NCBI GenBank assembly: GCA_000402295.1
Contig: AQRW01000183.1
Coordinates: forward strand, 1-54,414
Source of the DNA: Candidatus Aerophobus profundus SCGC AAA252-L23
GTDB taxonomy: Bacteria > Aerophobota > Aerophobia > Aerophobales > Aerophobaceae
Direction: 5' to 3'
Length of the DNA stretch: 54,414 bases
Shown here: one piece after another, positions 12,582 through 35,727 of the stretch
Position numbering within the stretch: the stretch's first letter is position 1
How the letters are laid out: each line of letters begins with the position of its first letter
Notes under the pieces: model-generated
Seen by the model: the letters and a program-made list of their open reading frames with translations, nothing else
Told to the model about the DNA's origin: nothing
Databases searched by the model: none
Translations under genes and position numbers: made by a program

Positions 12582-12586
12582 CTGGC

Positions 12587-12664
12587 TGGGGTGAGCGAGG
12601 GGATTCGAACCCCCGACATCTGGAGCCACAGTCCAGTGCTCTAACCAACTGAGCTACGCCCACC
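12587..12664 (-). tRNA. tRNA-His (anticodon GTG) with extra 5' G, CCA encoded
   Basis: The reverse complement is GGTGGGCGTAGCTCAGTTGGTTAGAGCACTGGACTGTGGCTCCAGATGTCGGGGGTTCGAATCCCCTCGCTCACCCCA. Anticodon loop is CTGTGGC. Confidence 0.9.
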
Positions 12665-12667
12665 ATA

Positions 12668-12743
12668 TGGAGCGGGGAACGGGATTCGAACCCGCGACAA
12701 TCGGCTTGGAAGGCCGAAGCTCTACCAACTGAGCTACCCCCGC
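12668..12743 (-). tRNA. tRNA-Gly (anticodon TCC), CCA encoded; integration target of the island
   Basis: The reverse complement is GCGGGGGTAGCTCAGTTGGTAGAGCTTCGGCCTTCCAAGCCGATTGTCGCGGGTTCGAATCCCGTTCCCCGCTCCA. Anticodon loop is CTTCCAA. Confidence 0.9.
12708..12743 (-). repeat. left copy of the 36-nt island direct repeat (tRNA-Gly positions 1-36)
   Basis: ggaaggccgaagctctaccaactgagctacccccgc recurs at 35475-35510 with a single mismatch (12718 a versus 35485 t). Confidence 0.85.
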
Positions 12744-12764
12744 TAATGCCTTATTATCAATTAC

Positions 12765-13805
12765 TTACAGTTCTTCAGTTCTTACTGGTTTTTCTTCCAG
12801 TGTCCAAATAGTGTCCATTCCACTGCACAATCTCTCCACTACCCGCCGCTTATGACCTGGTGAGAGATGAGCATACCGTAAGGTCATGGTAATCGATCGG
12901 TGACCCAAGAGCTCCTGTACTGTCTTCAAATCCGCCCCCGACATCACCAAATGCGAAGCGAAAGTATGCCGCAAATCGTGGAACCTGAAGTTCTTGATTC
13001 CAGCTCGCTTCAGGGCTGACTTGAAGCTCTTGGTGATGTCCCCGTAAGGCCGTCCCTTACGATTACCGAAAGCGTAACTGTCCCCTGTTTTTTCTCGGAG
13101 AAGAAACAAAGTTTGATAAAGAACACTATTTATGGGGACTTCTCGCCTATGTCCCCCCTTAGCTCTTATAATATATATCGTTTTCTGCCCTAAGTCAATA
13201 TCATCCCATTTCAAGTTCAGAATCTCTCGCTTGCGCATTCCTGTATTCAGTGCAGTAATAACTATTGGTCTCAAATGGTCCGGGCACGTTCTTACTAATC
13301 GACTGATTTCATCTTTCTCCAAATAACGCACCCGGCCACTGTCTTCCTGAAACAGCTTGACCTCATTCACTGGATTCCTGTCGGCTTTCCCCCAACTAAT
13401 TGCTTTGTTGTACAAAGCTTTGAGAAACTTCACTTCAATGTTAACGGTCCGAGAAGTAACCTGCCCTACCCGCTCCTTTTTGTAGTTCTCTATATCCAGG
13501 GGTGTAATCTCATGCAGATATTTGTGGGCAAAATAAGGACTGAGATTCTTAATGCATGTCTCATCCCGGGCCCAGGATCGCTTATTCGGTTTGGCATACG
13601 TTTCCAAATAGATCTGGGCCATATCCTTGAAGATCACTCTGGGAGTCTTCCTAATATCGAAGAACTTCCCCTCGGCAACCTGTACCTTCCGTTTCTTGAG
13701 GACCAACTCGGCCTGTCTTTTGTTGGGACCAACCTTCTCTCGTTTCCTTCGGCCGTTGGCATAGTAGTCGATGTACCAGTGTCCATTCTTCTTGAAGACT
13801 CCCAT
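12765..13805 (-). CDS. int: tyrosine recombinase / phage-type integrase
   Basis: 346 aa. The C-terminal HDLRHTFASHLVMSGADLKTVQELLGHRSITMTLRYAHL carries the R..HxxR..Y catalytic signature. The stop lies 21 nt from the tRNA-Gly 5' end. Confidence 0.95.
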   Translation of the reverse strand: MGVFKKNGHWYIDYYANGRRKREKVGPNKRQAELVLKKRKVQVAEGKFFDIRKTPRVIFKDMAQIYLETYAKPNKRSWARDETCIKNLSPYFAHKYLHEITPLDIENYKKERVGQVTSRTVNIEVKFLKALYNKAISWGKADRNPVNEVKLFQEDSGRVRYLEKDEISRLVRTCPDHLRPIVITALNTGMRKREILNLKWDDIDLGQKTIYIIRAKGGHRREVPINSVLYQTLFLLREKTGDSYAFGNRKGRPYGDITKSFKSALKRAGIKNFRFHDLRHTFASHLVMSGADLKTVQELLGHRSITMTLRYAHLSPGHKRRVVERLCSGMDTIWTLEEKPVRTEEL

Positions 13806-14709: not shown

Positions 14710-15819
14710 ATGGACGCTATAATCTCATGCATTGAAGACCTTAGGATTAAACTGGACAGGCACCGGAAGCACAGCCTCAAGGAGTATCCAACAAGGACAA
14801 TATTCATAGACCCATTGCTGCAGGTCCTTGGCTGGGAGATAAGAGATCCAGACGAAGTAGAACTTGAGTATCCCACCATAGATGGAAAGTCAGTTGACTA
14901 CGCACCCAAAATAAACCGTAAACCTGTTCTATTCATAGAGGCAAAACCATTGAATGACCCACTGACAGATGTGAAATCAATCACCCAAGTAGTCGGTTAT
15001 GCTGCTAATGCCGGTATTGAATGGTGTATTCTTACCAATGGTGTTACATATAAGATCTATCATAGTACAGAAAAGGCAGAGGCCCCTGATAAGTTGCTTT
15101 TTGAAATTTCTCTCGATCCAAAAGAAACCCAGGACATGTCCATCCAACAGGTTACAGAGCGATTTGCCCGTTTCTCACGTGAGGCAATGGCTAAGGGTTT
15201 ACTTGACGAGCTTGGCGAACAAATCTTTACCACAGGAAAAATAAGAAAGGCTTTGGACAAACTCTTCATGGAACCTCCCCGCACACTAATCAAGCTCATA
15301 CGCTCAAAGACTAGAGATGATAGTATCAAACCAACGCAGGTAAAAGACGCCCTCAAAAGACTCTGGGCTCAAACATCAGAAATTGAGGTATCCGCAACTT
15401 CTGGATTTACCGGTCAACCCGTGGTTCTTGATGAAACAAGAGTGAAAGCCAAGGAATATGGTGAGGAGCATCACCTAAAGGGGAAACCTCGAGAGGTTGT
15501 GGAGCTATTTCGAACAATTGACAAGTTCTGTAGAGAATTTGACCCAACCAATGTTCACAGAAAGTATCTTGCTAAGTATGTAAAGTATAGTCATGGCAAG
15601 AACATCTTCTGCTCTGTTCACGTTCAGAAGAATGGGCTGCGTGTTTGGTTAAAGCTGAAATACTCTGACTTAGAGAGTCCTCCTGAATACGCCCGTGATG
15701 TTTCAAACATTGGCCACTGGGGAGTGGGTAATGTTGAGCTGGGAATCGATAATCTGGAGAGATTCCAAAATGCTAAGGCTTTGATACAGAAATCGTTCGA
15801 GGAGAACAGGGCAAAGTGA
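14710..15819 (+). CDS. HsdR_N-like (PD-(D/E)xK type) N-terminal domain protein with DUF5655-like C-terminus
   Basis: AGGAGG RBS. The N-terminus has ..RTIFIDPLLQVLGW...VELEYPT.DGKSVDYA....KPVLFIEAKPL...GIEWCILTNGVTYKIY. This is the type I restriction enzyme R N-terminal domain pattern (D...E.K). C-terminus: KYVKYSHGKNIFCSVHVQKNGLRVWLKL. Confidence 0.5.
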   Translation: MDAIISCIEDLRIKLDRHRKHSLKEYPTRTIFIDPLLQVLGWEIRDPDEVELEYPTIDGKSVDYAPKINRKPVLFIEAKPLNDPLTDVKSITQVVGYAANAGIEWCILTNGVTYKIYHSTEKAEAPDKLLFEISLDPKETQDMSIQQVTERFARFSREAMAKGLLDELGEQIFTTGKIRKALDKLFMEPPRTLIKLIRSKTRDDSIKPTQVKDALKRLWAQTSEIEVSATSGFTGQPVVLDETRVKAKEYGEEHHLKGKPREVVELFRTIDKFCREFDPTNVHRKYLAKYVKYSHGKNIFCSVHVQKNGLRVWLKLKYSDLESPPEYARDVSNIGHWGVGNVELGIDNLERFQNAKALIQKSFEENRAK

Positions 15820-16035: not shown

Positions 16036-17070
16036 TCATTTTACTTTTTCGAGATCAGTTTTTAATACATTAATAATGAAATCTATAGCCTTATAATTGT
16101 AAATGCTAGGAGTTGCAGAAGGAATCACACCAGTTTCTTTATATTCATCTTCTTGTCTCTTATTCCTGAAGTTGTAAGCAGAATAATCTGTGTTGCTTTT
16201 AAGTTGGTTTTCCTTTATCGCAACCCAAACATTTTGATTACTCACTTGTGAAAGGCGCTTCTTAATTTCATTTGCAAGTTCCATCGCAGAAAGTGGATAT
16301 TCCTTTAGCAAATTTTCTTTAATTTTCTTAACCACTTCTACCATATCAACAGGCACAACATCACCAGTAAGCTTAAGAGTAGCTCCTCCCTTTTTCTCTG
16401 CAAATCGACCCTCTTTTATGAATTTCAACTTATTTGCTAAATTTTGATCCAGTACTAGAATTTTCGATTGGTCTATTTCGATTAACGATTTTTCGGTATC
16501 CAAGATAGCAGCGTTTTGTGGACCTGCTCTGCCAATTTTAGACATTAGATTTAACCATTGGGTATTATTTTGCTCAACCCTTCGTACAATTATATTCTCG
16601 AGTTCTGCATACTGGATTTTCTGCGTTCTGCCACCATATCTATAATAGACTTCGCCATTTCTTATTACTTGATTCTTGCCTTCATCCTTTTTTGCAATTA
16701 CTGGTTTGATTTGAGCTTCATGAATATAGAAAACACCGAAATTCTTACCATTATGATCAATAACGGCTTGTTCCCATCGAATATCTGATGAAAATATGTC
16801 AATTAGGAAACCTGTAATTCTTGCAGGCTCAATTCTATCGAATTGAGCCAACGAATTGGAGCTCAAACCAATTGGTATCCGAGGAGAATCCTTGACACCA
16901 AATATTATGTAACCACCTCTATTATTCGCAAATCCAACAAAATCACGAAAGTAGTCTCCTAAACCGGAAAAGTTGAACTGCTCCTTGAATTCCAATTCTT
17001 GACCTTCTCTATGATAGAGATAGTCACCTTCGGTCCTCAGCATTTCAACAATATGCTTTTCATCCATCAT
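16036..17070 (-). CDS. AlbA_2 (Schlafen-like divergent AAA) domain protein
   Basis: 344 aa. The N-terminal REGQELEFKEQFN...FRDFVGFANNRGGYIIFGVKD matches the AlbA_2 putative DNA-binding domain signature. Confidence 0.6.
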   Translation of the reverse strand: MMDEKHIVEMLRTEGDYLYHREGQELEFKEQFNFSGLGDYFRDFVGFANNRGGYIIFGVKDSPRIPIGLSSNSLAQFDRIEPARITGFLIDIFSSDIRWEQAVIDHNGKNFGVFYIHEAQIKPVIAKKDEGKNQVIRNGEVYYRYGGRTQKIQYAELENIIVRRVEQNNTQWLNLMSKIGRAGPQNAAILDTEKSLIEIDQSKILVLDQNLANKLKFIKEGRFAEKKGGATLKLTGDVVPVDMVEVVKKIKENLLKEYPLSAMELANEIKKRLSQVSNQNVWVAIKENQLKSNTDYSAYNFRNKRQEDEYKETGVIPSATPSIYNYKAIDFIINVLKTDLEKVK

Positions 17071-17124: not shown

Positions 17125-17865
17125 TTAGACATCGCCTACCCTGATCTGAGATTCCTCGATGAAATGCATGAATTCCTCTCCCAGCTCGGAAAGTCTCCTT
17201 GCCATACATCCTTGCGTGGTCATCGTCGTATGGAGACCGGGGGTCCTAGTTAGACCATGCGTGTTTACATCTTGCCAAACCTGGTCGTAGAAGGAACGCT
17301 GATTACACAGTTCAGGATATGCGCTCTCCAGAATAGAAGAAAGCCCTCCGATGTAAAGATTGGGGAACTGATGATTATGGAGCTTTGCCCATTTTAGGGG
17401 ATCCTGGAACAGCTTCATCAGGCGAAGGTGCCACACGGTGAAAGTATCAATGAGGTATAGAAAGAACTGCTGACGTGACTCCTCGGGAGGATGGGGTAAC
17501 GCAGAATTAAGAATCGCATTACGGAGGGCGCACCTTTTCCCCTCCTGGCTAGTTCTCATGGCAATTTGGCTGGCGGTGAGTACACAATCAAGGAATACGT
17601 CATTCCCCCTGAGTTCCTCGAGGTCAATTCCGTGATTGTCCTCGAGCGAGCGCAAGGCGTCCCCGACTTGCTTCATCCACTCCTTGCGCCTGAGTTCGAG
17701 AGGAGGTTGGACTATTGCAGAGAACAGCTCAGCGCCGGCACCGCCGACAAGAGGAATCGATGAGATTCCCGCCCTGGCTATCATGTGCACAACGTCTCCT
17801 GGTACAGGTTCGGCGGGTTGATACTTGGCCGTGCCTTGGTCTTTGCCTGACTCTTTCTTACTCAT
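17125..17865 (-). CDS. hypothetical protein (246 aa)
   Basis: Clean ORF co-oriented with neighbouring defence-type genes. No motif recognised with confidence. Confidence 0.45.
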   Translation of the reverse strand: MSKKESGKDQGTAKYQPAEPVPGDVVHMIARAGISSIPLVGGAGAELFSAIVQPPLELRRKEWMKQVGDALRSLEDNHGIDLEELRGNDVFLDCVLTASQIAMRTSQEGKRCALRNAILNSALPHPPEESRQQFFLYLIDTFTVWHLRLMKLFQDPLKWAKLHNHQFPNLYIGGLSSILESAYPELCNQRSFYDQVWQDVNTHGLTRTPGLHTTMTTQGCMARRLSELGEEFMHFIEESQIRVGDV

Positions 17866-18343: not shown

Positions 18344-19672
18344 CTATGGTGTAAGCTTCTTTATAGCCGCTTCTGCAAACAGCTTCAACACTTGTGCTGA
18401 GGGGTAAGTTGACAAAGACGCGATTGAATGAGCTAGCTCAACTGGCAACAAAGCGTTCTCGTAACGACTACTCAGAAGCTGGGGTAATGTACTCAGAATC
18501 CTGTCCAAGCCAATTACACTTATTGGGTTAGGTGCCTGGATGAAAGAATCCATATCTGTACTCACCGGGATGGTCAAGACAAAATGATACCGCTCATCCA
18601 GGGTCAAGAAGATCTTTGCCCCATAGTTTGTGTCACGGCCATATGACGCGCCACTAGGAGGACGGTGCTGAATCTGTTCACAGATATAGGTATGATTTGG
18701 GATGAAGAAATGCCCATTGGGCGCGTCTCTGCTGATCAAATTCAGATGTTCGACAAAGGAGCCAGTTTTTTCTTGCCCCACTATGGAAACTGGCACACCT
18801 TTGCGTAAGGCGTAAATGAGAAAACGGCGGATAGGATTCACCAGTTTGGAATACTGTGCCCTGATTTGCAGGGGACCATCCTTGACGAATAGACAACGTT
18901 TCAGAATCTCTGGATTGGTTTCCCAAAAATGTCGAATGCCGGTAAATAGCAACAGCGTCTCGTGGATGTTCATATATGCTGTGGCAACACTATCGGACGC
19001 TGCTTCCTTAACCATGTCCAGATGAAAACCAAGCATGTCGGTAATGAAAAGCTGTTCGCCACAACGTGGGCAGGTACCTAGGTCAGCGTCATAGGGAAGA
19101 GTTGCTTGGTCGCTCTGACAATGCGGGCATTGGAACTTGCGTAATTGCTTTTTGGCAGACGACCACTTCTCATAGGCTAGCCACTTAAGCGTCTCCATTG
19201 GTTCTCTGTCAAGTGAGTTGTCTTGCACTGACTCGAAAACCGTTTGTCGGACTGCGTCATAGACGGAAATCCCCGGTACTTGCACATGACGAAGCGGAAA
19301 GACGGTTGCATGATACAAAGCTGAGTCAGACATAAGATCGCGCAAAGCAAATGGATGTGGGGTTTCTTTGTCAATACGGCCTAGTGCTACCTGGTCAATT
19401 CGCATAAGGGCTGTCTTCACAAATGCCAGTGCTTTATGAGGCGGCCGCTCGTCTTGAATCACCTGAATAGAACCATCAACACCGAAAACCAAGTCAAGCG
19501 GTTGCCCGTGTAACGGCATAGGTTGCCAATCAATGCTATCAGTGGCCACCGATATGTCAGGTTGTTCGAAGCTCTGGACTAGCTGTTGCACCAAGGGGCT
19601 GCGCAGCACTTCCAGATGACCAAGTCTGCTTGCCCGCTCGCCAGGCAGTCTATTACTGGTACTGTAGGGCAT
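18344..19672 (-). CDS. NurA-domain nuclease-like protein with inserted CxxC...CxxC zinc ribbon (442 aa)
   Basis: The start is set at ATG 19672, behind AAGGAGGAAGAC; the track ORF starts at 19759, inside the upstream gene. LVFGVDGSIQV and CLFVKDGPLQI match the NurA DGS and DG.L motifs. CPHC (19118-19129) and CPRC (19061-19072) form a ribbon. Confidence 0.6.
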   Translation of the reverse strand: MPYSTSNRLPGERASRLGHLEVLRSPLVQQLVQSFEQPDISVATDSIDWQPMPLHGQPLDLVFGVDGSIQVIQDERPPHKALAFVKTALMRIDQVALGRIDKETPHPFALRDLMSDSALYHATVFPLRHVQVPGISVYDAVRQTVFESVQDNSLDREPMETLKWLAYEKWSSAKKQLRKFQCPHCQSDQATLPYDADLGTCPRCGEQLFITDMLGFHLDMVKEAASDSVATAYMNIHETLLLFTGIRHFWETNPEILKRCLFVKDGPLQIRAQYSKLVNPIRRFLIYALRKGVPVSIVGQEKTGSFVEHLNLISRDAPNGHFFIPNHTYICEQIQHRPPSGASYGRDTNYGAKIFLTLDERYHFVLTIPVSTDMDSFIQAPNPISVIGLDRILSTLPQLLSSRYENALLPVELAHSIASLSTYPSAQVLKLFAEAAIKKLTP

Positions 19673-19691
19673 GTCTTCCTCCTTATAGCAG

Positions 19692-21704
19692 CTATAGTTT
19701 CGCACTGGAGACTGCTGCGATCTCTGGCTCGAATTTGTGAGCCTGGACTGAAACCACAAACCGGTGTGAACGCGTCAGCATTCGAATGTAGCCAGGCGTC
19801 TTTGCACAAAGTATATCATCTTTCATACTCTCATAGGCGACATTCATTCTAGCAAGACCATTGACCTCATCCTGGGACGACATATGTGCAACAAAAAAGT
19901 TTTCCGTTTGTGCTAGTAAATCTTTGCTGATTGTCGTCGGCGATTGAGTTGAATACACCATTCCTATGTGATACTTAGCCCCTTCCTTTCCAAAACGACT
20001 ATAGATAGTAGTCACATCTTCTTTGCTTGGGAACAGGTTGTGCGCTTCTTCGAAATAAAGCTGAGCGTAGTGATCGCCTAACCGGTTGTTGCTGAACTTG
20101 TCAAGTTGATGCGCAAAAACTGCCTTTGAGAGTAAGTCAGAGAAGTAGCCCATTACTATCGGGTGGGCGTTCCCCAGGTCCAGAATCACTGTCTGACCTG
20201 AATCCAAGAGCTTCAGGACTTCATTCACGAAGTTGCCCGCACTCGGGTCATTGTACATCCTGTATGGTTGGATCAGGGAAGTGCCACTCCGTCCGGGCGG
20301 AGGTTCCAGAAACTCGAGGAGCGCCTCGTCGTCAGAGTCAAATAGGGAATTACCACTACCCGTGGTTAAGTTCTGATCATGTCGGTGGTCTCTTCGAAAG
20401 CGGTTTATGACCTCAAATTCCCTGGCCAACTCAGAGAGTGTAGTAGGTGGTGCTGGCGAAGGTGCTATGTTGCTGAATATATATGCAGCATCTCTTAGGG
20501 TGACGGCAAACCCCGGATTCAGTTTGCTGGCTGGCTTGCCGGGTGGTGCTACAGATTTAAGGCGTGGTTCGTTGACCGGGTATCCCGCTTTTTTCAGGAT
20601 AGCCCAAAACGCTTGAATCTTGCGCAAAGCTCTTCCCTGTTCGCTTCCTGGTAGTAGCTTCGCAACTTCCTCCAATGATGGTAAATCGACACTTATAAAG
20701 CTACGTATGTAGTTGGAATTGTCTTTACCATCCTGAGTGAGAAGGCTACCGATTATCCGATGCGCACTATCCGGCTGCTCGTAGAAGTTCAATTTCAAGG
20801 GCCTCGAGGGTGTTGTTTCTTTGGCCGTCAGGGCATACACGGTGCACTGCTCAGGATAAGCGCTACGCAATGACCTGCTATTATCCTGTGGGTTATCGTT
20901 GGCATATTCGCCGTTGATGTCGAAAATCAACTGGCCTACGTGTCCGGTGTCCCTGGTTGTCTCAATAAGGCTCTGCGCTATCAATTTGACCACGTTACTT
21001 TTTCCCAGGCGTGTTTTGCCGAACATAGCTGTACGCGCACCTAGGAAGTCACGCGTGGACACATAAACACCTACATTGGGCCATGGTCTGTTAGGGAGTG
21101 ATAAACGACACTCGGTCAATCGTAATCTGCCAATCTCGAATCTGTTCTCTGCTGGCACCAAGGTATTAACCACTAGGTCTAGTAAGGCTTTATCCGGCGC
21201 ATATACTCGATACTTGTGTGCGCTAACGAAGTTGTTTATATCACCCGAGAACTCGACTGCATCCTGCCGGTCGGGATCAGGATAGAACATTCCCAATACA
21301 GCAGTGTTCAAAGCACCCCACTGTAGCTCTGACTGCGTGAATATATCAAGTTCCGGCATAGATTTCTTTTGGAGTTCGAAGTACGTTTGCTGCGTTTCCC
21401 TGGTTAAAGGAGTGGGAGCGGTATCCAATACACGCAATAGGATAAAATGTGGTGTCACCACTGCTTCTTGCACGGCGGGTGTCATAATCAGCAGAGAATT
21501 GCGGGGCACTCCGCCTACAGCCATCTTGAACGGGTCAGAGGTGATAATCGTGACCGTGTCGAAGTTAATGTCGAGAACATACCCAACAAAACGCAAATCT
21601 GCGTATCTCTTTGCAGTCTCGTTGGCCGCTTCGTCATCCAGAAAATCCTTGAGTATGCGTAATGGATGGTTCTGTTGAGCCGCTTGATCAAAGAACTGCT
21701 TCAT
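19692..21704 (-). CDS. HerA/FtsK-clade (DUF87-type) ATPase (670 aa)
   Basis: Walker A FGKTRLGKSNV, FDINGEY, Walker B-like QLYFEEAHNLF and sensor-like VYSTQSP, with an N-terminal barrel-like region (FVGYVLDINFDTVTIITSD). The start ATG overlaps the MTase stop (ATGA at 21701-21704). Confidence 0.7.
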   Translation of the reverse strand: MKQFFDQAAQQNHPLRILKDFLDDEAANETAKRYADLRFVGYVLDINFDTVTIITSDPFKMAVGGVPRNSLLIMTPAVQEAVVTPHFILLRVLDTAPTPLTRETQQTYFELQKKSMPELDIFTQSELQWGALNTAVLGMFYPDPDRQDAVEFSGDINNFVSAHKYRVYAPDKALLDLVVNTLVPAENRFEIGRLRLTECRLSLPNRPWPNVGVYVSTRDFLGARTAMFGKTRLGKSNVVKLIAQSLIETTRDTGHVGQLIFDINGEYANDNPQDNSRSLRSAYPEQCTVYALTAKETTPSRPLKLNFYEQPDSAHRIIGSLLTQDGKDNSNYIRSFISVDLPSLEEVAKLLPGSEQGRALRKIQAFWAILKKAGYPVNEPRLKSVAPPGKPASKLNPGFAVTLRDAAYIFSNIAPSPAPPTTLSELAREFEVINRFRRDHRHDQNLTTGSGNSLFDSDDEALLEFLEPPPGRSGTSLIQPYRMYNDPSAGNFVNEVLKLLDSGQTVILDLGNAHPIVMGYFSDLLSKAVFAHQLDKFSNNRLGDHYAQLYFEEAHNLFPSKEDVTTIYSRFGKEGAKYHIGMVYSTQSPTTISKDLLAQTENFFVAHMSSQDEVNGLARMNVAYESMKDDILCAKTPGYIRMLTRSHRFVVSVQAHKFEPEIAAVSSAKL

Positions 21705-22528
21705 TGCACTCGCTCCTTTCTTATGTAATAGCTAGTGATCAATACCTCGCCAGAGTTAGCTACGGTAATGCCAGGTCTGCGCCCTGTCCCCCGTGGGGTC
21801 TTGATGACTGAGCTGTCAGCAAATAACTCAACGATGTCAGGATGCCCAGATGTGGTCAGAGCCCACATGATCCCTCGTTTCTTCGCGTCTCGTAGAACAG
21901 AGGCTAGTCGGCGATGATGCTCAAACGAAAAACGTCCGCCGATGTAATGATCGTTAGTCAATTCTATTTCTCCTGGTCGATAGGGCGGATCGGCAAAAAC
22001 AAAATCGCCAGACTTGCAGTCTGCTATAGCCTCCTCGAAGTCACAGCAGCGGAGTTCAACCCCGCGTAATGTGCGTGCAACACCCACTAGGTCATCCAGA
22101 CTTATCACCCATCGCCGATCCTGTCCTCCATACCCAACGTTGAATTTGCCTTCCTGATTGTGCCGCCACATACCCTTAAAGCAAGTGCGGTTGAGAAAAA
22201 GCACGCGCGCAGCACGATCAACAAAGAATTCAGGTGGATCAGCATCACGAATTCTCCGATACTCGGCTTTGCCCGAGCCAAACGCACAATAGCGGTTCCA
22301 TACCTCTTCAGGAGAATGTTGTATGCCACGATACAAATCGATCAGATCTGGATTAATATCTGAAAGCAGCGCTCGCTCAGGATTGAGCTTAAAGAAAACT
22401 GCGCCTCCTCCCACAAAAGGTTCGACATACCGTCGCCGTAAGCTTGCTGCTGTAGGAAGATGCTCTTGGAGAAATCCTAACATCCGTCTTTTGCCACCGG
22501 GGTAGCGCAGAAACTTAATCACATTCAT
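21701..22528 (-). CDS. Dam-type (alpha class, D12) N6-adenine DNA methyltransferase
   Basis: 275 aa with LRYPGGKRR, EPFVGGGAVFF (SAM motif I) and FVFADPPY (motif IV). Confidence 0.85.
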   Translation of the reverse strand: MNVIKFLRYPGGKRRMLGFLQEHLPTAASLRRRYVEPFVGGGAVFFKLNPERALLSDINPDLIDLYRGIQHSPEEVWNRYCAFGSGKAEYRRIRDADPPEFFVDRAARVLFLNRTCFKGMWRHNQEGKFNVGYGGQDRRWVISLDDLVGVARTLRGVELRCCDFEEAIADCKSGDFVFADPPYRPGEIELTNDHYIGGRFSFEHHRRLASVLRDAKKRGIMWALTTSGHPDIVELFADSSVIKTPRGTGRRPGITVANSGEVLITSYYIRKERVQ

Positions 22529-23232: not shown

Positions 23233-26200
23233 TCAATTAGCGTTTTCATTTTCCCCTTCCACGATTTTGATTTCTTCCGGGGTGAGATCGTAGAGCTTGT
23301 AAACGAGATGGTCGATCCCCTTCTTATATGCTTTTACTTCCACCTGCTTGGCCAGGTTTTGAAGATAGTCGTCGGATTGTGTGAGGACGAGGATTTTGTC
23401 TACCAGCGTGATAAAAGGTTTTTGTAGAGTGTGAACCACATTCTTGACCGGTAGAGTTTTCAGGATGACTATTTTAACTTGAGCAAAAACCCTTCCTTCT
23501 TCCTCAACCAATTGGTTATAGTAGAAGTTGAAAAGCATAGAATTGAATAAAGCCAAAATGAATTTCAAGTCAAATTTCTGGTTAATCAAAAGCTGGATGT
23601 GTGTACTATCAAGGGCAAAAAAACCTTTATCGTCGTACGCAGCAATCAAAGAATCTCCAGTTTGACGATTTATTAGCTTCGGCCTAGTCTGAAAAAATCC
23701 TCTGTTTGTATTGCTCCACAATAAGTCTTCGTCAAACAAAATGTAGGTATCGCCGAATGAGTAATAATATCTATGTATGTTACGGCCCCTCAGTATTCTT
23801 TCGTATCTGTTGTCGATTTTCGCGTTATTCAGAAATTTCTTGTTATCGCCAGTTATAATCCCCTGATAAAATTTTACTACATCCCCCAAGGGGATACTGT
23901 CACTCGAAATCTTCTTTAATAATTTACCCAACCTGGCATCTAAGTAAAACTTCTGCCCTTCATTTGAAGCGAAAGTCCTTTGGTCAATTAAGTTGTAATT
24001 CGGTTTGTCCCCAAAGTAACGTACTTCATCTACCACTCTTACCCCGGTCATATGGTCTTTGTTATCTCCCTTACTCAATATAGTTATTAGGTTGCCGGCT
24101 GTCTCCGCATGCTCAAAAACCCTGTCCTTTATGTTTATTAGGAATTCGATGGTACAATTCGCAAGTATGAACTGTCTTGTCTTTTGAAGCGTCGAATTCA
24201 AAAGTAACGTGTTTGGTGTTATGAAGGTAAGAACGCTATGTTTGCCCAGTAAGAAAATTGACCTTGCAAGGAAAAGAGAGTAGGTGTTCCCTTTGTATTC
24301 AAAGACATTTCTGTATTTATCTTTGAGGACTTTGATCTCATTATCTGTAAAAAACTTCTGCTTCTTACCCAATGCAACAGTGATGTAAGGCGGATTCGCA
24401 ATCACCACATCGAAGCCACCTTTCTGGTGAAACACTTCAGAGAAATAGACCTCAAAGTCAAACTCCCTATGTCCATTCGTAATCCGATGAATCAGGTCAT
24501 CGATCTGTCTTTTCTGGACTGCCTTCCTCGCTGGATTGGTCTCGTTGAAATAGAGGGTCTTTTGTTCCTCCAATTCCTTAAATAGGTGGTGGTTCAATAG
24601 GTTTCGTTCCACTCCAAGTAGAGAATCACCACAGACGATTTTGTAGTCGAGATTCGGCAACGGCTTAATGCTCTTGATATCCTCCTCATCTACGATGAGC
24701 GAGAGCCACAAACGTAATTTGGCGATCTCTACTGCACCTGGGTCAATATCCACTCCGTACAGAGAATCTTCAATGCACCGGCGTTTGAAATCGTACACGG
24801 TCCTCCCTCGATCCCCTATAAATGTAGACAAGACATTTCTGGCCTTGACGATTTCGTGCATCATACCCACGGGAAATGCTCCTGAACCTACCGCGGGATC
24901 GCAGACTCTTATGTTGGCCAACTTCTCGTCGATTAGTTCCGCGTTCCTCCTAATGCTTTGGGGCAGTTTGTAAGAGTAGGTTTTTGTCTCCTTGCCTTCT
25001 TTTCCTACCCTTGCATCATTCTCTCCTGCCTGCTCACCCAAACGTATCAGAACCTCAACATCTTCTCTGGAGATCTGTGAATTCAATCCATGGGTAATGG
25101 TCAAATCCAGTTGGTCGTCCTTGACCTTGTTGCCATACATATCCAACTGTGATTCGGTGAGTCTTTCGTAGACCACTGGGCCGGCATTGAATTCACCGTG
25201 TAGATAGCTGATCAGGGTCTGCTGGCACATGTAGTGGACAATCTCTCGGGGAGTGTAGTAGACACCAAACCTCTTGTTGAATTTGCTCTCTTCCCCTTTT
25301 TTCCCGCTCTTCAGTGCCTTTTTGTATTCCTGGAAATTGTCTGGCCGAATAGCATTGAATTTCTCATACGCCTTGCCCAGGAGTTCCGGGTCAATGGCCA
25401 CTTCCTTTTCCAGTGGCTCATCTTCTTTGACCGTGAAATTGTAGCGGTCAAAGACATCCAGGATGCCGTTGCCGGTATCCCCCTCTCTTGTTTTTACAGT
25501 ATTGGAAAAGAGTCTGTCCGGAATAATAATATCGGTGTGCACCCAGTCGTAATTACCAATGGGGTCAAAAAGCCCTCCGTTCAGGAAAGGTATTTTGCAG
25601 TCAAAACGACTGTAATAATCATCGTCGTAGCTGCGGTCGATGCGCAGAGCTTCATAAAAGAGCGGCTCAAGGATGTCGTTAAAGAAATTGTGATAATCTC
25701 CATGTTTTTTCTCAAATAGTCCCCGTAGAAAATGCTTTGAGCCGGTGCCCCAGCCATTATCCCGGCCCACACCGAACCAGCCTTTTTTCTGCAAAAAATA
25801 GAGAAATACAATTTGCCCCAGCAGTTTCTTGGCAACGTTTACCGTATCAACGCCTTTTTCCTCAAAATCAGCCTTGATTCTCGGATCTTTGTTTACCACC
25901 TTGTCCAGCTCATCTTTGGTGCGAAGGAAAAGTTCGCGGTATTTGAGGAAAAACTCTTTGGTGACGGTTTCAATATCAAAGGCTTTTTCGATTTCTTCCA
26001 GAGTGGGATCATGTTCATCATTTTTCAAAATATTAACAAGACGGCTTTGCGCGGTGTGGCTTCTTTCGTTTTTGCCCACCAGGAAGGACCAGCGCCGGGC
26101 AGGGGTGAACTCTTCTTTCACCTTCATTCTACCGGATTTTGACTGTTCAAACTTATAGTCCATCTTGACCAGTGAAAACCGCCAATCCCCTTTATCGGGT

Positions 26201-26547
26201 GATACATACGCAACAAGAGCCGCGTCCTTCATCACACCACCCCGGCTGCCATTGAGATACCAGGCGACGAAATTACGCTGCATGGTGCGGGCGCGTTCAA
26301 GCGATGTCTCTTTCTGAAGCGTTATGACAAGAATATCAATACTGCTTTCCCCGTCGCTGAACTTGCCGATACGCTCCAGCGTTTTTATGTATTGTTTATA
26401 TGCATCGGGGATATAGTTTCCCCGGTAGGTAAAAGGAGCGACATCAATCCTGTTAAGAAGGTTCTTTATAAATCCGGTAAACCTGTCCTTATCAAAAGAC
26501 GTTTCGAAAGTGTCTCCGATAATGTTCTGTGCCTGTTGCTTATCCAT
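23233..26547 (-). CDS. large gamma-class N6-adenine DNA methyltransferase (Eco57I/type IIG-like, 1104 aa) with C-terminal specificity region
   Basis: FGVYYTPREIVHYM, VCDPAVGSGAFPV (motif I), YGVDIDPGAVEIAKLRLWL and FDVVIANPPYI (motif IV). The ATG lies 2 nt after the stop of the upstream PLD-SNF2 gene. Confidence 0.8.
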   Translation of the reverse strand: MDKQQAQNIIGDTFETSFDKDRFTGFIKNLLNRIDVAPFTYRGNYIPDAYKQYIKTLERIGKFSDGESSIDILVITLQKETSLERARTMQRNFVAWYLNGSRGGVMKDAALVAYVSPDKGDWRFSLVKMDYKFEQSKSGRMKVKEEFTPARRWSFLVGKNERSHTAQSRLVNILKNDEHDPTLEEIEKAFDIETVTKEFFLKYRELFLRTKDELDKVVNKDPRIKADFEEKGVDTVNVAKKLLGQIVFLYFLQKKGWFGVGRDNGWGTGSKHFLRGLFEKKHGDYHNFFNDILEPLFYEALRIDRSYDDDYYSRFDCKIPFLNGGLFDPIGNYDWVHTDIIIPDRLFSNTVKTREGDTGNGILDVFDRYNFTVKEDEPLEKEVAIDPELLGKAYEKFNAIRPDNFQEYKKALKSGKKGEESKFNKRFGVYYTPREIVHYMCQQTLISYLHGEFNAGPVVYERLTESQLDMYGNKVKDDQLDLTITHGLNSQISREDVEVLIRLGEQAGENDARVGKEGKETKTYSYKLPQSIRRNAELIDEKLANIRVCDPAVGSGAFPVGMMHEIVKARNVLSTFIGDRGRTVYDFKRRCIEDSLYGVDIDPGAVEIAKLRLWLSLIVDEEDIKSIKPLPNLDYKIVCGDSLLGVERNLLNHHLFKELEEQKTLYFNETNPARKAVQKRQIDDLIHRITNGHREFDFEVYFSEVFHQKGGFDVVIANPPYITVALGKKQKFFTDNEIKVLKDKYRNVFEYKGNTYSLFLARSIFLLGKHSVLTFITPNTLLLNSTLQKTRQFILANCTIEFLINIKDRVFEHAETAGNLITILSKGDNKDHMTGVRVVDEVRYFGDKPNYNLIDQRTFASNEGQKFYLDARLGKLLKKISSDSIPLGDVVKFYQGIITGDNKKFLNNAKIDNRYERILRGRNIHRYYYSFGDTYILFDEDLLWSNTNRGFFQTRPKLINRQTGDSLIAAYDDKGFFALDSTHIQLLINQKFDLKFILALFNSMLFNFYYNQLVEEEGRVFAQVKIVILKTLPVKNVVHTLQKPFITLVDKILVLTQSDDYLQNLAKQVEVKAYKKGIDHLVYKLYDLTPEEIKIVEGENENAN

Positions 26548-26549
26548 AT

Positions 26550-29500
26550 TTATTCACCTAATAGATATAATGAGAGTATGACTTCGCGCTTTCCGAACAC
26601 TGCGGGGCTCCGCTCGGCATAATGGCTTTCCAGAAGTCTTATGGGGATATTATTCTGAAGTACTGCCAGCACCTTAAACGGATTTATCAGTTGATCTTTG
26701 AGGGCATTCAATGCTTTTATTGTGTGTTTGGCTGTCTGTTTGGGTAGTCCGCCTTCTTCAAGCTGGGTGAATACTTTTTTGAGGTAAAGCTCCTGGTCTT
26801 CGGTGAACTTCTGGGTGTTTTTCATGGTTGCTTTTAGAATCTTGAGGATACTGACGGCGCTATCGCGGCCTCTTCTTTTCTGGGGTTCTGCCATTTCTTC
26901 GGTTGTGGCAAGAACAAAGGCCTTTTTGTTCTTTTCCAGAAGGTCATAGAATTCTTCAGGAAGTTTATTCCTCTTTTCATCCGGTTTGCTTTCAAGCAGT
27001 TTAGCCGTTGCCATGAAATCAAGTTCTTCAGCCTGCTTCTTATCCTTCGCTACAAAGAACTTCTGAACCTTGCCGCGCCTAAAATATGTTATAAGCGATT
27101 TCGCAGTATTTTCTTTTGGCTTTGCTGTGCGTGCCTTTTTGGGAAGGCGCTTTGTTTTTTCAAACAAGTCGGGTTCCTTTTCCCGGATATGCCGGATCAC
27201 CTGAAGATATTTCAGTTCACTTTCCTCTGCTTCATCTCCACCCTCCAAAGTTTTCTTGGAGATCAATCGGTCAAACAGCTCATGTGAGCCTATGGGCTCT
27301 CCTTCGGTTAGAAGCTCCGCATCACCACCGAGCAGGGTCAAAAACGCATTGATTTTCCCTTCTGCCGCTTCTTTGAGCTTTATCTCGTTATTGGATTGTG
27401 TGGTCGGAAAAAAATTGAAGGTATGAATAGCATCAAAGAGTGTATCAACACGGTTCACACGTCCTACTCTCTGCATCATTCGGGTTGGATTCCAGGGGAT
27501 ATCGTAGTTAATCACTACATTGGAGCGGTGCAGGTTAACACCTTCTGAGAGGACCTCGGTAGAGACAAGTATTCGATAATCATCTTTCTTGTGACGGGCT
27601 CTGGCGTCGAAGTTTTCGATCACCTTATCACGGACAGACTCACCGGAATCGCCGGTAAAGAGAAGTACCCTTTCAGGATATTTGTCATTGATGTTTTTCG
27701 ACAGATAATCGGCGGTTTCCTTTGACTCGGTAAAGATTATCAGGTGACTTTGTCTCAAGATTTCTGTTTTGGACAATTCATCTAAGAGTTTCATCAGTTT
27801 TGGGTCGCGATTGACCTTCTGCCAGAGCTTTTTGACCTCCATAAGAATTTCACGGTCATGCTGCAGATCTTTCCTGAACTCTTTCCTGAAATCTTTGCTC
27901 TCGTATCTTTCCGCCTTGCCTTCATCTATTAATCGCTGAACTGCTTCGTCATCGTCGCTCTCAAGCAGTTCAAATATCTTGCTTGTATGTTTCTTGCTCA
28001 CATACACATTGCCGTTATCAAACTCTTTTATGAACATGTCGTAGGAGTGCAGGAACCGGTCAACGGAATTCCTGAAGGCAAAGAAGCTACTTTCCAGCCG
28101 TTTGACCAGCAGGATTTTCATAAAGCGTCCCATATTTCTCTGGGACTGCTCCTCAAGCTGGTCTATTTTTCCTTCATAATAGAGCATGGGCGTGTAGCGG
28201 GCGTATCTAAACTTATGGGCAATCAGGTCGATGGTTTGATTGAAAATACTGTCTTCTTCACTATTCAGTTCGTAGAATAGAGGCTCTGGTTTCTTTACTT
28301 CCGGAAATTTGAGGCCTTGTTCTCTTATGTCTTTACTGAAATAATTTTCAATTTCAGTTCTGGTGCGGCGCACCATTAAATATTTGAGAACTTTATTTCG
28401 TATTGCCCGTGAGTTTTCTTTTACAGTATCTATGTACTCGACATAGTCTTTCTTTCGGTCCAGTTTCTCCAGCTTCTTGTCCAGTCCGCTAAAGAATCCT
28501 TCCAGATTTGGCAGATTGGGGATGGTGCTCTTCTTGGCTTTTTGAAAAAGTTTAAGTAGGCTCAGGATGTCTTTCGGAGTATTGTTATAGGGCGTAGCTG
28601 TCACTAGAATAACCCTTTTGCCACGGCAGATTTCAGCCAGCTTCTCATAGGAAATTGTTGTTTCAGTTCGGAAACGGTGGGCTTCATCAATGATTATATT
28701 GGTGTATTTTTCGGTTCCTCTTTGCAAAAGGTCGTCAAGTTTCCCAATAGAATTAAAATCTGCCGGAAATCGAAAATCTGAAAACACATTCGTCCAGGAA
28801 CCGGGATTGGATTTTTCCAGAAGCACCGGCGGGGCGATAACAAGTGTTCTGCCGTCCAGTTGTCCGGCCAGCATTGCTGAAATATATGTTTTACCAAGGC
28901 CTACTACATCGGAGATAAAGACACCCCCGTACTCCATAAGAATCTTCTTGGCGTTTAAAACCGCCTGTTCCTGGTATTCAAGCTTTTTGAACTCTTGCGG
29001 GAGGTACTTAATAAACACTTCGTCTGTTTGGCTAAGTTCATCCTTGAAATATTCATATAGAAATTTCAGGTATAACCGGTAGGGTGAGATATTTTGGCTC
29101 AACCAGGTCTTATTTTGAATGGTCTGAACATACTTTTCGCTGACATCTACAGCATTATTCCATAATTCCTCAAATTTATTTTTAGCAAAGTCATAGTCAC
29201 TTCTGTTTTTCAGTTCCACGTTGAATTCAAGATTATCAACCAACCCCGCCTGGGTGAAATTACTGGAGCCTGTGATAACACGCCCAACATCCCTGTCACC
29301 TTCCGTGAATGTCATAATGTAGAGTTTGGCGTGTATATTCTGTGACGGATATGCTCGTATTTTCAGTTTGTCGCTTTTAATCCATTCCATGAACCTACTT
29401 ACTCCATCTTCCACTTTCCTATTGTCCTCAGAATCCTCCAATTCTTTCATAACGAGATTCTCAATTTCCTGCTTGGTTTCAGCGTGCGAGAAATCAAAAG

Positions 29501-35157: not shown

Positions 35158-35474
35158 TATGCCTCACCCTCCCGATTTCGTTACGATAAGGAAATTGACC
35201 TCATTTCACCTATTTTTCGTTATGGTAACAAGATATTCAAAGATGACTGGGAGCTGATCTGTGAATACTACTCTACATATTTTACGTACAACGAAGGATA
35301 AGTCAAATTTCAAGAGTTTCCAGCCCCATATTTGGTGTCCATATAGTGTCTATTTTAGGTGCAAAATCCTGTGTTTTGATACAGATTGGTGGGGAATGAA
35401 AAACTGATGAAACTGTGGTCTGAAGTGTGTTTTCTGCATTGGGTAGGTTTCTTAGAATTGCCCCGGATGGGCTC

Positions 35475-35510
35475 GGAAGGCCGATGCTCTACCAACTGAG
35501 CTACCCCCGC
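35475..35510 (-). repeat. right copy of the island direct repeat: 5' fragment of tRNA-Gly(TCC) (pseudo-tRNA)
   Basis: 35/36 identity to 12708-12743. Similarity decays beyond the anticodon (35468-35474), and no T-arm or acceptor 3' strand is present. Confidence 0.85.
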
Positions 35511-35630: not shown

Positions 35631-35727
35631 ATCCTGTAGCCTTTTTGAATTTCTTAGCCTTGTGTTTCTTCTTTTGGCCCAGTGAAGACTCCTATCTGTT
35701 ATTCTTGGTTTATTTGTTGGATCGTAT

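Follow-up and report, generated by a model that had tools for sequence, protein, structure and literature searches.

Three coupled genes of Candidatus Aerophobus profundus SCGC AAA252-L23, encoding a Dam-family DNA methyltransferase (MTase), a TdpA-type ATPase, and a putative NurA-type nuclease, probably formed a self-contained, horizontally mobile, restriction-modification (R-M)-like defence cassette, in which a TdpAB-like translocase-nuclease would destroy DNA without a methyl self-mark. The window, that is, the whole stretch of DNA analysed, was positions 1–54,414 of contig AQRW01000183.1 (forward strand, 54,414 nucleotides).

Organization of the operon

The triad and its junctions were arranged as follows.

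21701..22528, minus strand: gene 1, Dam-family (D12 class) N6-adenine DNA methyltransferase, 275 aa
21701..21704, minus strand: ATGA shared by the MTase stop and ATPase start, translational coupling
19692..21704, minus strand: gene 2, HerA/FtsK-superfamily ATPase of TdpA type, 670 aa
19673..19691, minus strand: 19-nt spacer from the ATPase stop to the nuclease start, containing the RBS AAGGAGG
18344..19672, minus strand: gene 3, putative TdpB-like nuclease, a divergent member of the NurA superfamily carrying a zinc-ribbon insert, 442 aa

The tight coupling of three minus-strand genes in the original prediction was confirmed from the ORF coordinates and at both junctions. The MTase gene was the first of the operon and was translationally coupled to the ATPase gene, with its end (...GTG CAA TGA) overlapping the ATPase start (ATG AAG). 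The ATPase stop codon, TAG, occupied positions 19692–19694, and the RBS (19678–19684) was located 5 nt before the nuclease ATG at 19672. The third ORF spanned positions 18344–19759 of the minus strand, and this internal ATG gave the 442-residue protein. The motifs previously quoted for the three proteins were all present in the translations. The nuclease and ATPase had 1641 and 2382 database homologues, respectively, and each of the three ORFs had well over 1000, which indicates that the ORFs did not arise by chance.

DNA methyltransferase

The Dam-type assignment of gene 1 was upheld by matches to the Pfam D12 family (PF02086, 4.7e-42) and to TIGR00571 (181 bits, above the cut-off of 114.85). 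The protein also matched the PADLOC MTase_II model (5.6e-58), and its top solved relatives were M.DpnII-1 (5.7e-37) and E. coli Dam (EcoDam; 2.6e-21). The catalytic motifs were intact, with PGGK at residues 10–13 and three further elements located by alignment.

22391..22417, minus strand: SAM-binding motif FVGGGAVFF (FxGxG), residues 38–46, aligned with the DpnM and EcoDam motif
22121..22180, minus strand: DNA-recognition hairpin FKGMWRHN...NVGYGGQ
21980..21994, minus strand: catalytic motif ADPPY (DPPY), residues 179–183

The recognition hairpin was kept across the triad MTases, and its residues differed from EcoDam N120, L122, P134, R137, and Y138. The target motif may be GATC, though the hairpin is unlike that of canonical Dam.

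ATPase

The HerA-type assignment of gene 2 held against Pfam DUF87 (5.7e-11, 43 bits vs. a cut-off of 23) and the PADLOC HerA model (2.7e-18). In a sequence search of the PDB, TdpA was matched with an E value of 2e-24 and the next HerA with 4.2e-08. The top three Foldseek matches were TdpA chains (~3e-13), followed by a match at 1.6e-08; TdpA was thus favoured over any other HerA by 5 orders of magnitude in fold and 16 in sequence. The identity with TdpA was ~35% across the C-terminal ATPase half. The DINGEY motif was located at residues 262–267, and three motifs corresponded to those of TdpA.

20997..21020, minus strand: Walker A GKTRLGKS, residues 229–236, aligned with TdpA GKTGFGKS
20040..20057, minus strand: Walker B YFEEAH, residues 550–555, aligned with TdpA LEEAHN
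19938..19955, minus strand: YSTQSP, residues 584–589, sensor-1 glutamine region typical of HerA/FtsK, identical in TdpA

The ATPase scored far under the NCBIfam HerA equivalog cut-offs, including that of repair HerA.

Nuclease

The prediction of a NurA-type nuclease was upheld, by an indirect route through structure and homologues. In the Pfam profile search, the window protein itself did not match the NurA model (PF09376), whereas 11 of 76 diverse homologues did, down to 8.5e-26. Foldseek matches of the AF2 model (pLDDT 79, pTM 0.81) were, in order, TdpB (3.7e-08), NurA of D. radiodurans (DrNurA; 8.4e-07), NurA of T. kodakarensis (TkNurA; 3.1e-06), TM1739, and NurA of P. furiosus (PfNurA), with modest TM-scores of 0.44–0.52; Argonaute PIWI domains ranked after the NurA-type structures. 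A profile of the nuclease gave no significant match to the TdpB sequence (E value of 0.88), and the similarity to TdpB was structural only.

19469..19480, minus strand: VDGS, residues 65–68, strand beta-1, predicted to carry the first catalytic Asp
19061..19129, minus strand: zinc ribbon CPHC...CPRC, residues 182–204, inserted in the RNase H-like fold
18869..18886, minus strand: VKDGPL, residues 263–268, end of a core strand

Residues Asp66 and Gly67 of VDGS were at least 90% conserved over the broad nuclease family, and residues Asp265, Gly266, and Leu268 of VKDGPL were nearly invariant. The zinc ribbon gave weak matches to Zn-ribbon Pfam models; its cysteines were invariant in group A1, and a CPxC...CxxCG consensus was retained in group A2. 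The window nuclease (442 aa) was longer than TdpB (375 aa), which, judged by this offset in length, probably lacks the insert.

Conservation of the triad

A co-occurrence survey showed the triad to be a conserved neighbourhood, with the order MTase–HerA–nuclease kept in 56 of the 60 loci with enough flanking DNA. The three proteins co-diverged (Mantel r of 0.78–0.83, and 0.72–0.77 inside the main clade; p<=0.001), the MTase as strongly as the ATPase and nuclease with each other. When the flanks of triad loci were compared, no other window gene was conserved beside the triad. In Deferribacter pDF308 and in a distant branch of metagenomic sequences, PF01555 MTases stood in for the D12 type, and a Vibrio prophage carried a convergent D12 MTase, between int and xis. 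The MTase family is therefore exchangeable in distant HerA–NurA branches, as in R-M systems.

This linkage bears on an explanation in which HerA–NurA would be an infection-triggered or abortive-infection effector, as in SIR2–HerA (Nezha) and DUF4297–HerA, blind to methylation. The MTase would then serve otherwise, for example by shielding the cassette or host from other restriction systems or by epigenetic regulation. HerA does partner several non-R-M anti-phage effectors, whose structures were among the fold matches, and weak PADLOC and NCBIfam matches to anti-phage HerA were obtained. Moreover, distant HerA–NurA pairs on a Tolypothrix plasmid and at loci L096 and L054 had no adjacent recognisable MTase, and profile searches of Pfam, PADLOC, and NCBIfam detected no methyl-reader domain. 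This explanation is nevertheless unlikely: the MTase was linked near-obligately, co-diverged as strongly as the effector pair, was swapped for unrelated families rather than lost, and led a translationally coupled operon, and Tdp, the nearest characterised relative, is modification-gated. Like those systems, the triad pairs a HerA-family ATPase with an effector. Unlike them, it has a modification gene and a putative NurA-fold nuclease as the effector instead of SIR2 or DUF4297, and its ATPase scored 47 bits against an equivalog cut-off of 800.

The triad was found in many bacterial phyla and in archaea, the hosts including Chloroflexota, Acidobacteriota, Cyanobacteria, Deinococcota, Nitrospirota, Spirochaetota, Planctomycetota, and Saccharibacteria, as well as Methanoperedens and other archaea; it was not restricted to thermophiles. 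This patchy, cross-domain distribution at 45–82% identity implies horizontal transfer. Family members were located on islands, plasmids, and a prophage; elsewhere, the triad was a bare three-gene insert amid housekeeping genes or adjoined toxin–antitoxin and R-M genes. Some copies had decayed, with a frameshift in HerA, truncation of the MTase, an IS insertion, or only an orphan nuclease remaining.

Such mobility argues against a housekeeping HerA–NurA machine for double-strand-break end resection, with an adjacent orphan Dam methylase that would control replication or mismatch repair. The two folds, in adjacent genes, are shared with classical HerA–NurA of archaea and Deinococcus, whose structures were among the fold matches, as would be the assembly of a hexamer with a dimer and the processive degradation of dsDNA; PGAP labels distant homologues "DNA double-strand break repair nuclease NurA". 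However, the triad was MTase-coupled and mobile, no Mre11/Rad50 neighbours were found in the window or the triad loci inspected, and the ATPase and nuclease fell short of the repair HerA and Pfam NurA models, as described above. For archaeal HerA–NurA, even a role in repair has been questioned (PMC12977600), and this explanation is highly improbable.

Genomic island

The triad was housed in a ~22.8 kb tRNA-Gly/integrase island delimited by direct repeats.

12505-12743: tRNA Lys/His/Gly cluster
12700..12743: 44-nt direct repeat, left copy, a portion of tRNA-Gly, island boundary
12765..13805, minus strand: tyrosine integrase (Pfam Phage_integrase, 1.3e-37)
35467..35510: 44-nt direct repeat, right copy, 93% identity with the left copy, island boundary
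35514-35631: integrase-like remnant, 118 nt, after the right repeat copy

A Type IIG REase-MTase gene (1104 aa) was located directly upstream of the triad. The island also contained an HKD+Snf2 helicase, an HSDR_N/DUF5655 protein, a Schlafen/AlbA_2 protein, and PADLOC candidate genes. The integrase, repeats, and Type IIG gene bear out the integrase-bounded island with R-M-like neighbours that had been proposed.

A similar element is ICEth1 of Thermus thermophilus HB27, with the operon Tth111II/TthHB27I (Type IIG)–NurA-like TTC1878–TdtA–TTC1880 methylase, a gene set genetically needed for DNA donation ("transjugation"), in which methylase loss had only minor effects (PMC5365140, PMC7767461). 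The triad could by analogy be a DNA-mobilisation ("DNA secretion") module that processes and pumps out donor DNA, which is a doubtful proposition, less likely than an abortive-infection effector. By description, each operon encodes a nuclease resembling NurA, a hexameric ATPase of the HerA/FtsK type, and a DNA methylase. Both are on tRNA-inserted integrase islands adjoining a Type IIG enzyme of ~1100 aa (1106 aa in ICEth1; PMC5365140), and TTC1880-type PF01555 methylases also accompany distant members of the window family. However, the ICEth1 order is NurA–ATPase–methylase, its methylase is PF01555 instead of D12, and the likeness to TdtA and TTC1878 is one of description. The Type IIG neighbour was not conserved with the triad elsewhere, and most triads were bare inserts that lacked an integrase and any other ICE function. 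The Thermus phenotype may also arise secondarily from a defence module that degrades DNA.

Proposed mechanism and relation to known systems

In the R-M-like cassette, the MTase would place N6-methyladenine on a specific motif of host DNA. By analogy with HerA–NurA and TdpAB, the ATPase would form a hexamer that drives dsDNA translocation with ATP, and a nuclease dimer of RNase H fold would cap it; the complex would thread DNA from ends or nicks and digest it processively. Incoming unmethylated phage or plasmid DNA would be destroyed and methylated self DNA spared, either by stalling or inactivation of the translocase-nuclease at the methyl mark, as phosphorothioate reportedly acts on TdpAB, or by reading of the site by the MTase or the zinc ribbon of the nuclease.

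Like classical R-M systems (Type I–III and ATP-dependent Type II systems such as CglI/NgoAVII), the cassette combined a dedicated MTase with a predicted NTP-dependent nuclease machine, and shared mobility, an exchangeable MTase, decayed copies, and an MTase-first operon. It differed in having none of the PD-(D/E)xK, HNH, and PLD endonucleases, no motor of the SF2 helicase type, and no specificity subunit; the motor was a HerA/FtsK ring and the predicted nuclease fold was RNase H-like (NurA). The cassette has no sequence-specific endonuclease that would start restriction on circular or end-protected DNA, which counts against the R-M-like reading, as do the undetected methyl reader, the distant pairs without an adjacent recognisable MTase, the DNA-donation role of the ICEth1 gene set, and the structure-only likeness of the nuclease to TdpB. 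In its favour, the nearest solved relatives of the ATPase and nuclease were the two restriction subunits of Tdp. Also in its favour are the intact motifs, the conserved and co-diverging unit, the exchangeable MTase, the cassette-like mobility and decay, and the MTase-first operon in an island with other defence genes.

The TdpABC system of thermophiles combines phosphorothioate modification by TdpC with a restriction complex of TdpA (HerA-like hexamer) and TdpB (NurA-like) (PDB codes 8WET, 8WFD, and 8Y1K). Tdp and the triad each comprise three genes, for one DNA-modifying function, one translocase, and one nuclease. Tdp has been described as a modification-based R-M system in which tdpC is the only modification gene and the consensus is GpsATC (PMC12914056). 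The window instead encoded a Dam-family, SAM-dependent m6A MTase, whose mark would be placed on the base rather than the backbone. Since m6A lies in the major groove and the Tdp mark on the ring-tracked backbone, Tdp gating is not simply transferable, a further point against the R-M-like reading.

The triad proteins matched no multi-gene system in PADLOC v2, only generic MTase and HerA models; a DefenseFinder-style annotation of the Vibrio prophage labelled the MTase alone, and no corresponding system was found in the searchable literature. The novelty of coupling HerA–NurA to a dedicated Dam-type MTase is weaker than first stated, given the kinship with TdpA and TdpB and the NurA-like/TdtA/methylase operon of ICEth1. 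The cassette looks like a methylation-based relative of the Tdp anti-phage machine, in a family that extends beyond thermophiles.

Operon structure

Three tandem open reading frames on the minus strand, running from 22528 to 18344, were confirmed by ORF calling and formed a three-gene cassette (the triad) of 4.2 kb.

21701–22528, minus strand, gene 1, methyltransferase (MTase), 275 aa
19692–21704, minus strand, gene 2, ATPase, 670 aa
18344–19672, minus strand, gene 3, nuclease, 442 aa

The tight coupling described in the original prediction was recovered from the nucleotide sequence. The end of the MTase gene (...GTG CAA TGA) shared the ATGA at 21701–21704 with the ATG of the ATPase gene. The ATPase stop codon (TAG, 19692–19694) was followed, after 19 nt, by the nuclease ATG at 19672, and the ribosome binding site AAGGAGG was located at 19678–19684, 5 nt before this ATG. 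Every motif quoted for the MTase, ATPase, and nuclease was located in its protein. These reading frames are not chance, because the nuclease and the ATPase had 1641 and 2382 database homologues, respectively.

The methyltransferase

The product of gene 1 is, as judged from its sequence, a predicted N6-adenine DNA MTase of the D12 class and Dam family. The Dam-type assignment was borne out by matches above the cut-offs to Pfam PF02086 (144.9 bits against a cut-off of 22, E 4.7e-42) and NCBIfam TIGR00571 (181.4 bits against 114.85), in addition to PADLOC MTase_II (5.6e-58). The closest solved relatives were M.DpnII-1 (DpnM; 5.7e-37) and then E. coli Dam (EcoDam; 2.6e-21). The SAM-binding motif FVGGGAVFF (FxGxG, residues 38–46) and the catalytic motif ADPPY (DPPY, residues 179–183) were both intact and aligned with those of DpnM and EcoDam. 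The window MTase was not an orthologue of EcoDam, because it scored 94.8 bits against the EcoDam equivalog NF008152, which has a cut-off of 441. In the recognition hairpin, it was unlike EcoDam at the positions of N120, L122, P134, R137, and Y138, with R124 retained.

When the MTases of loci L001–L076 (handles for nuclease-family loci in other genomes) were aligned, the triad MTases fell into two clades. The major clade, including the window MTase, had RYPGGK and a strictly conserved hairpin, FKGMWRHN...FNVGYGGQxRRW. The minor clade (L051–53, L060, L062, L067, L068, and L072) had the canonical Dam-like KWAGGK and NGLYRVN...FNVPxG. The minor clade accompanied the most divergent HerA/NurA pairs, and therefore the MTase type and the restriction pair co-vary. 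Based on the hairpin sequences, GATC may not be the target of the major clade. The observed/expected ratio of GATC was 0.83 in the window and 1.1 in the triad, which was uninformative on MTase specificity.

The ATPase

The product of gene 2 is a predicted ATPase of the HerA/FtsK superfamily, in agreement with the expected HerA type. It matched PF01935 (DUF87) with 43.4 bits (cut-off 23.2) and PADLOC HerA with an E-value of 2.7e-18, and the Walker A (GKTRLGKS), Walker B (YFEEAH), and TQ(S/R)P sensor (YSTQSP) motifs were all intact. Against all NCBIfam HerA equivalogs, of both the repair and the anti-phage (SIR2/DUF4297) type, the ATPase scored 24–47 bits, compared with cut-offs of 800–970.

The best PDB match by sequence was TdpA (E 2e-24), the HerA-like subunit of the TdpABC system of thermophiles, over two stretches, which covered both the half with Walker A and that with Walker B; the next HerA followed at 4e-08. 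The AF2 model of the ATPase was poor (pLDDT 62), and the ranking of its matches alone was used, with the details disregarded. In the Foldseek search with this model, TdpA chains were the top three matches (~3e-13), followed by SIR2-HerA (1.6e-08). The window ATPase was thus of the TdpA type by both sequence and fold.

The nuclease

Gene 3 had no family in Pfam, PADLOC, NCBIfam, or PHROG, except for weak zinc-ribbon matches at residues 177–212. Two alignments of the nuclease family, A1 and the broader A2, were used as profiles against the PDB and gave zinc-ribbon noise and TdpB, the NurA-like Tdp subunit, at an E-value of 0.88, and nothing else. Since these profiles reached no solved structure, a fold comparison was needed.

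The AF2 model of the nuclease was of fair confidence, with a pLDDT of 79 and a pTM of 0.81. Its eight best Foldseek matches were all TdpB or NurA, including TdpB (3.7e-08), Deinococcus radiodurans NurA, Thermococcus kodakarensis NurA, TM1739, and Pyrococcus furiosus NurA, with Argonaute PIWI domains ranking next. The TM-scores of the fold matches were modest (0.28–0.53). The proposed NurA-type assignment stood by this fold comparison and by the relatives of the protein, as Pfam NurA (PF09376) was matched by 11 of 76 diverse full-length homologues (profile E<1e-32; best match 8.5e-26), but it did not extend to a direct match, as the window nuclease itself did not match PF09376 at E<=0.1. Homologues on plasmids, with 25% identity, were labeled 'DNA double-strand break repair nuclease NurA' by PGAP. 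These three lines, the model matches, the Pfam matches of relatives, and the PGAP naming, place gene 3 in the NurA superfamily, with a predicted RNase H-like fold.

In an exhaustive profile search, 740 clusters of the nuclease family were recovered at 50% identity; the number at 90% exceeds 1600. Residues Asp66 and Gly67 (VDGS), Glu238, Asp265 and Gly266 (KDGPL), and Glu301 and Lys302 were at least 90% conserved in the 76 diverse nucleases. In the predicted model, Asp66, Glu238, Asp265, and Glu301 lay within the RNase H-like core, either in a helix or where strands end. Because of these positions, the conserved acidic residues are compatible with an active nuclease, in which their catalytic role is predicted. 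A CPHC...CPRC zinc ribbon was inserted in the nuclease fold and was a hallmark of the family.

Conservation and spread of the triad

The triad was surveyed with one genome per species, which returned 80 loci. The gene order was counted in the 60 loci with at least 3 kb of upstream sequence and an intact nuclease N-terminus. The HerA gene was directly upstream of the nuclease gene in 57 of these 60 close loci, and the complete order MTase, HerA, and nuclease was found in 56, so that the triad is a conserved neighborhood in other genomes, as the original prediction requires. Eight further loci, of which seven were distant, were also checked, and HerA and NurA were adjacent in each. Of the four remaining loci, one held an orphan nuclease and another a fragmented one, HerA was frameshifted in the third, and in the fourth an insertion separated HerA from the nuclease; all four look like decayed or interrupted copies. 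Further damaged copies were L055, with a truncated MTase, and a Deferribacter plasmid with an IS element in HerA. The pairwise divergences of the three proteins were correlated, with Mantel r values of 0.78–0.83 overall and 0.72–0.77 in the main clade (p<=0.001).

The bacterial hosts included members of Chloroflexota, Acidobacteriota, Cyanobacteria, Deinococcota (Meiothermus), Nitrospirota, Atribacterota, Spirochaetota, Planctomycetota, Verrucomicrobiota, Bacteroidota, Saccharibacteria, and Bdellovibrionota, and the archaeal hosts included Methanoperedens, Methanosarcinales, and Nitrososphaeraceae. Cultured carriers included Meiothermus hypogaeus DSM 23238, Thermodesulfovibrio yellowstonii, and Rosettibacter firmus. 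The nuclease identity among hosts was 45–82% over these many phyla and archaea, which is strong evidence of horizontal spread. In long contigs, the three genes were inserted without further cargo among housekeeping genes or lay beside toxin-antitoxin or Type III-like R-M genes. A housekeeping role, in which HerA–NurA repairs double-strand breaks beside an orphan Dam, is contradicted by this distribution and context and is very improbable.

In distant branches (23–31% identity), the HerA–NurA pair was kept and the partner gene changed. The partner was again a D12 MTase in some of these branches. In a metagenomic lineage and on the Deferribacter megaplasmid pDF308, its place was taken by an N4/N6 MTase of PF01555. 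In the temperate Vibrio phage 10N.286.55.C4_PE001 (L088; PQ189371.1, 1–6052), the order was int, HerA, NurA-like gene, convergent D12 MTase, and xis. This gene set occupied the phage attachment end, a typical slot for accessory genes, as a phage-borne version of the triad system. In IMG/VR, a single viral contig carried the close family, and the cassette is therefore not typically phage-borne.

Two distant pairs had no recognizable MTase. The pair on a plasmid of Tolypothrix sp. PCC 7910 (L086; NZ_CP050441.1, 3659–10362) was flanked by an HTH regulator upstream, and downstream by a single 816-aa protein that joins an RNase_T-exonuclease to a STAND/ORC-like ATPase. This locus resembled the 'HerA/FtsK capture' systems of Aravind and colleagues. 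In the second locus, L096, a 315-aa protein without a Pfam match was encoded directly upstream of HerA–NurA (2018–2965, plus strand), and may be a different modification or sensor component. In a Nitrososphaeraceae MAG (L054; 879–6366), HerA was frameshifted and no D12 MTase adjoined HerA–NurA. About 1.4 kb upstream, on the opposite strand, lay a gene whose product had a restriction-endonuclease domain of the DpnII/MboI type (GATC), a hint of possible GATC methylation in trans.

The genomic island

The integrase-bounded island with R-M-like genes reported around the triad was found again, with its tRNA-Gly, integrase, and Type IIG REase-MTase. The island spanned ~22.8 kb, from the tRNA-Gly and integrase to a partial copy of the tRNA-Gly. 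The following features were located in the window.

12668–13805, tRNA-Gly and integrase
12700–12743 and 35467–35510, two copies of a 44-nt direct repeat (93% identity), corresponding to the 5′ part of the tRNA-Gly on the minus strand
14710–15819, plus strand, HSDR_N + DUF5655 protein, PADLOC PDC-S18-like (4.5e-23)
16036–17070, minus strand, Schlafen/AlbA_2 protein
17125–17865, minus strand, 246-aa protein, sole match an unannotated PHROG
within 23233–29741, minus strand, Type IIG REase-MTase, 1104 aa, PADLOC PDLC03596 (E=0), Eco57I/TaqI_C/MmeI domains
within 23233–29741, minus strand, PLD(HKD) + SNF2 helicase, 1063 aa, PADLOC candidate C3a139 'HKD+Snf2' (6e-46)
34229–34816, minus strand, Pol-beta-type nucleotidyltransferase, PDC-S09-like
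35514–35631, integrase remnant, 118 nt, sharing 85% identity with the stretch 13140–13257 in the integrase gene
47065–47164, plus strand, ARAGORN 'tRNA-???', 100 nt, four-base anticodon

The integrase was located at the 5′ side of the tRNA, which is unusual. The integrase-like stretch after the distal repeat suggests a second, decayed tandem integration event. The Type IIG gene was directly downstream of the HKD+Snf2 helicase gene, with 2 nt between them (26547/26550), and the two appear to make up an R-M-like, ATP-dependent module of their own, in addition to the triad. The candidate tRNA at 47065–47164 was rejected as a probable false positive, as the Rfam tRNA model was silent at the gathering threshold.

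None of nine flanking window genes recurred beside triads in other loci, and the HSDR_N/DUF5655, Schlafen/AlbA_2, 246-aa, and nucleotidyltransferase genes were likewise not kept there. The Type IIG enzyme and the other window genes were therefore rejected as components of the system.

Comparison with known systems

The triad is distinct from classical HerA–NurA repair pairs, SIR2/DUF4297-HerA systems, and Type I–III R-M systems. An infection-triggered HerA–effector system, in which the MTase would have another role, is considered unlikely.

The closest likeness was to Tdp. Its restriction subunits TdpA and TdpB were the best fold matches of the ATPase and the nuclease, although the sequence profile of the nuclease family reached TdpB only at an E-value of 0.88, whereas TdpC, the phosphorothioate modification gene, was absent from the triad, in which the modification gene was a D12 MTase and with which no further gene was conserved. 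Since it lacks TdpC, the triad is not a Tdp system. By analogy, we rate it as a putative methylation-based counterpart of Tdp rather than as categorically new. When a piece of TdpA from the PDB alignment served as the query, seven short fragments were returned and nothing else, and the two contigs inspected were truncated or decayed.

A similar gene content is known from ICEth1 of Thermus thermophilus HB27, where the operon order is Type IIG, NurA-like gene (TTC1878), TdtA, and PF01555 methylase (PMC5365140, PMC7767461). Transjugation depends on TdtA and the NurA-like gene but hardly on the methylase (PMC5365140, PMC7767461). The likeness to the triad is one of gene content. The Type IIG gene beside the window triad mirrored Tth111II beside NurA–TdtA in ICEth1. 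A DNA-donation module of this kind would fit the gene content and island context, which are strikingly like those of ICEth1, but the Type IIG neighbor was not kept with the triad in other loci, and we regard such a role as improbable.

The components of the triad matched no multi-gene system in PADLOC-DB v2.0.0 (2023), where the MTase matched the generic MTase_II/oMTase, the ATPase the generic HerA, and the nuclease nothing. In a DefenseFinder-style annotation of the Vibrio prophage, the MTase alone was flagged. In full-text literature searches, no MTase–HerA–NurA system was named; the original Tdp paper and two older comparative-genomics papers, which may mention one, lay outside these searches. 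In a February 2026 paper on an archaeal complex, a defense role of HerA–NurA was still a hypothesis, with repair or defense left open (PMC12977600).

Proposed mechanism

The triad is probably an R-M-like system. The MTase would put m6A on self DNA, and a TdpAB-like complex of a HerA hexamer and a NurA dimer would thread and degrade DNA without the mark. This R-M-like reading draws on the fold and family identities of the three proteins, and on the specific kinship of the ATPase and the nuclease to Tdp, the sole characterized modification-coupled HerA–NurA machine. It is also favored by the way in which the MTase is obligately linked to the pair, diverges along with it, and is replaced by non-orthologous MTases, by the MTase-first operon order with translational coupling, and by patterns of mobility and decay typical of R-M systems. 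In the Tdp study, phosphorothioate reportedly suppressed translocation and nuclease activity of TdpAB on self DNA. The sensing of a base mark in the major groove is the weakest link of the R-M-like reading. The reader could speculatively be the zinc-ribbon insert of the nuclease, the channel of the ATPase, or the MTase as a site sensor. Tdp has been described as a third R-M system based on phosphorothioate, in which a single gene serves for modification and the consensus is GpsATC (PMC12914056).

More tentatively, and with some doubt, the triad could represent a distinct, widespread class of ATP-dependent R-M systems. The restriction enzyme of this class would be a HerA–NurA/TdpAB-type ring translocase with an RNase H-fold nuclease, without a site-specific endonuclease, and m6A, read during threading, would signal 'stop' or 'self' and so amount to an epigenetic Chi site. 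This class and Tdp together would form one family of HerA–NurA machines gated by modification, in which the modification module is interchangeable (a D12 MTase, a PF01555 MTase, or phosphorothioation). Such a family would further suggest that the Thermus TdtA operon, and many bacterial genes of 'HerA–NurA repair', in reality serve defense.

If true, the R-M-like reading would add a compact, very widely transferred defense system that PADLOC-DB v2.0.0 misses, carried by many bacterial phyla, candidate-phyla-radiation bacteria, and several archaeal lineages. The TdpAB-type translocase-nuclease would then not be a thermophile curiosity bound to phosphorothioate but a restriction engine of general use, to which ordinary base methylation can be coupled. 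How a ring translocase senses an epigenetic mark, and whether bacterial HerA–NurA acts in repair or defense, would become testable in this widespread, compact, and experimentally tractable family, which bears on the purpose of bacterial HerA–NurA pairs.
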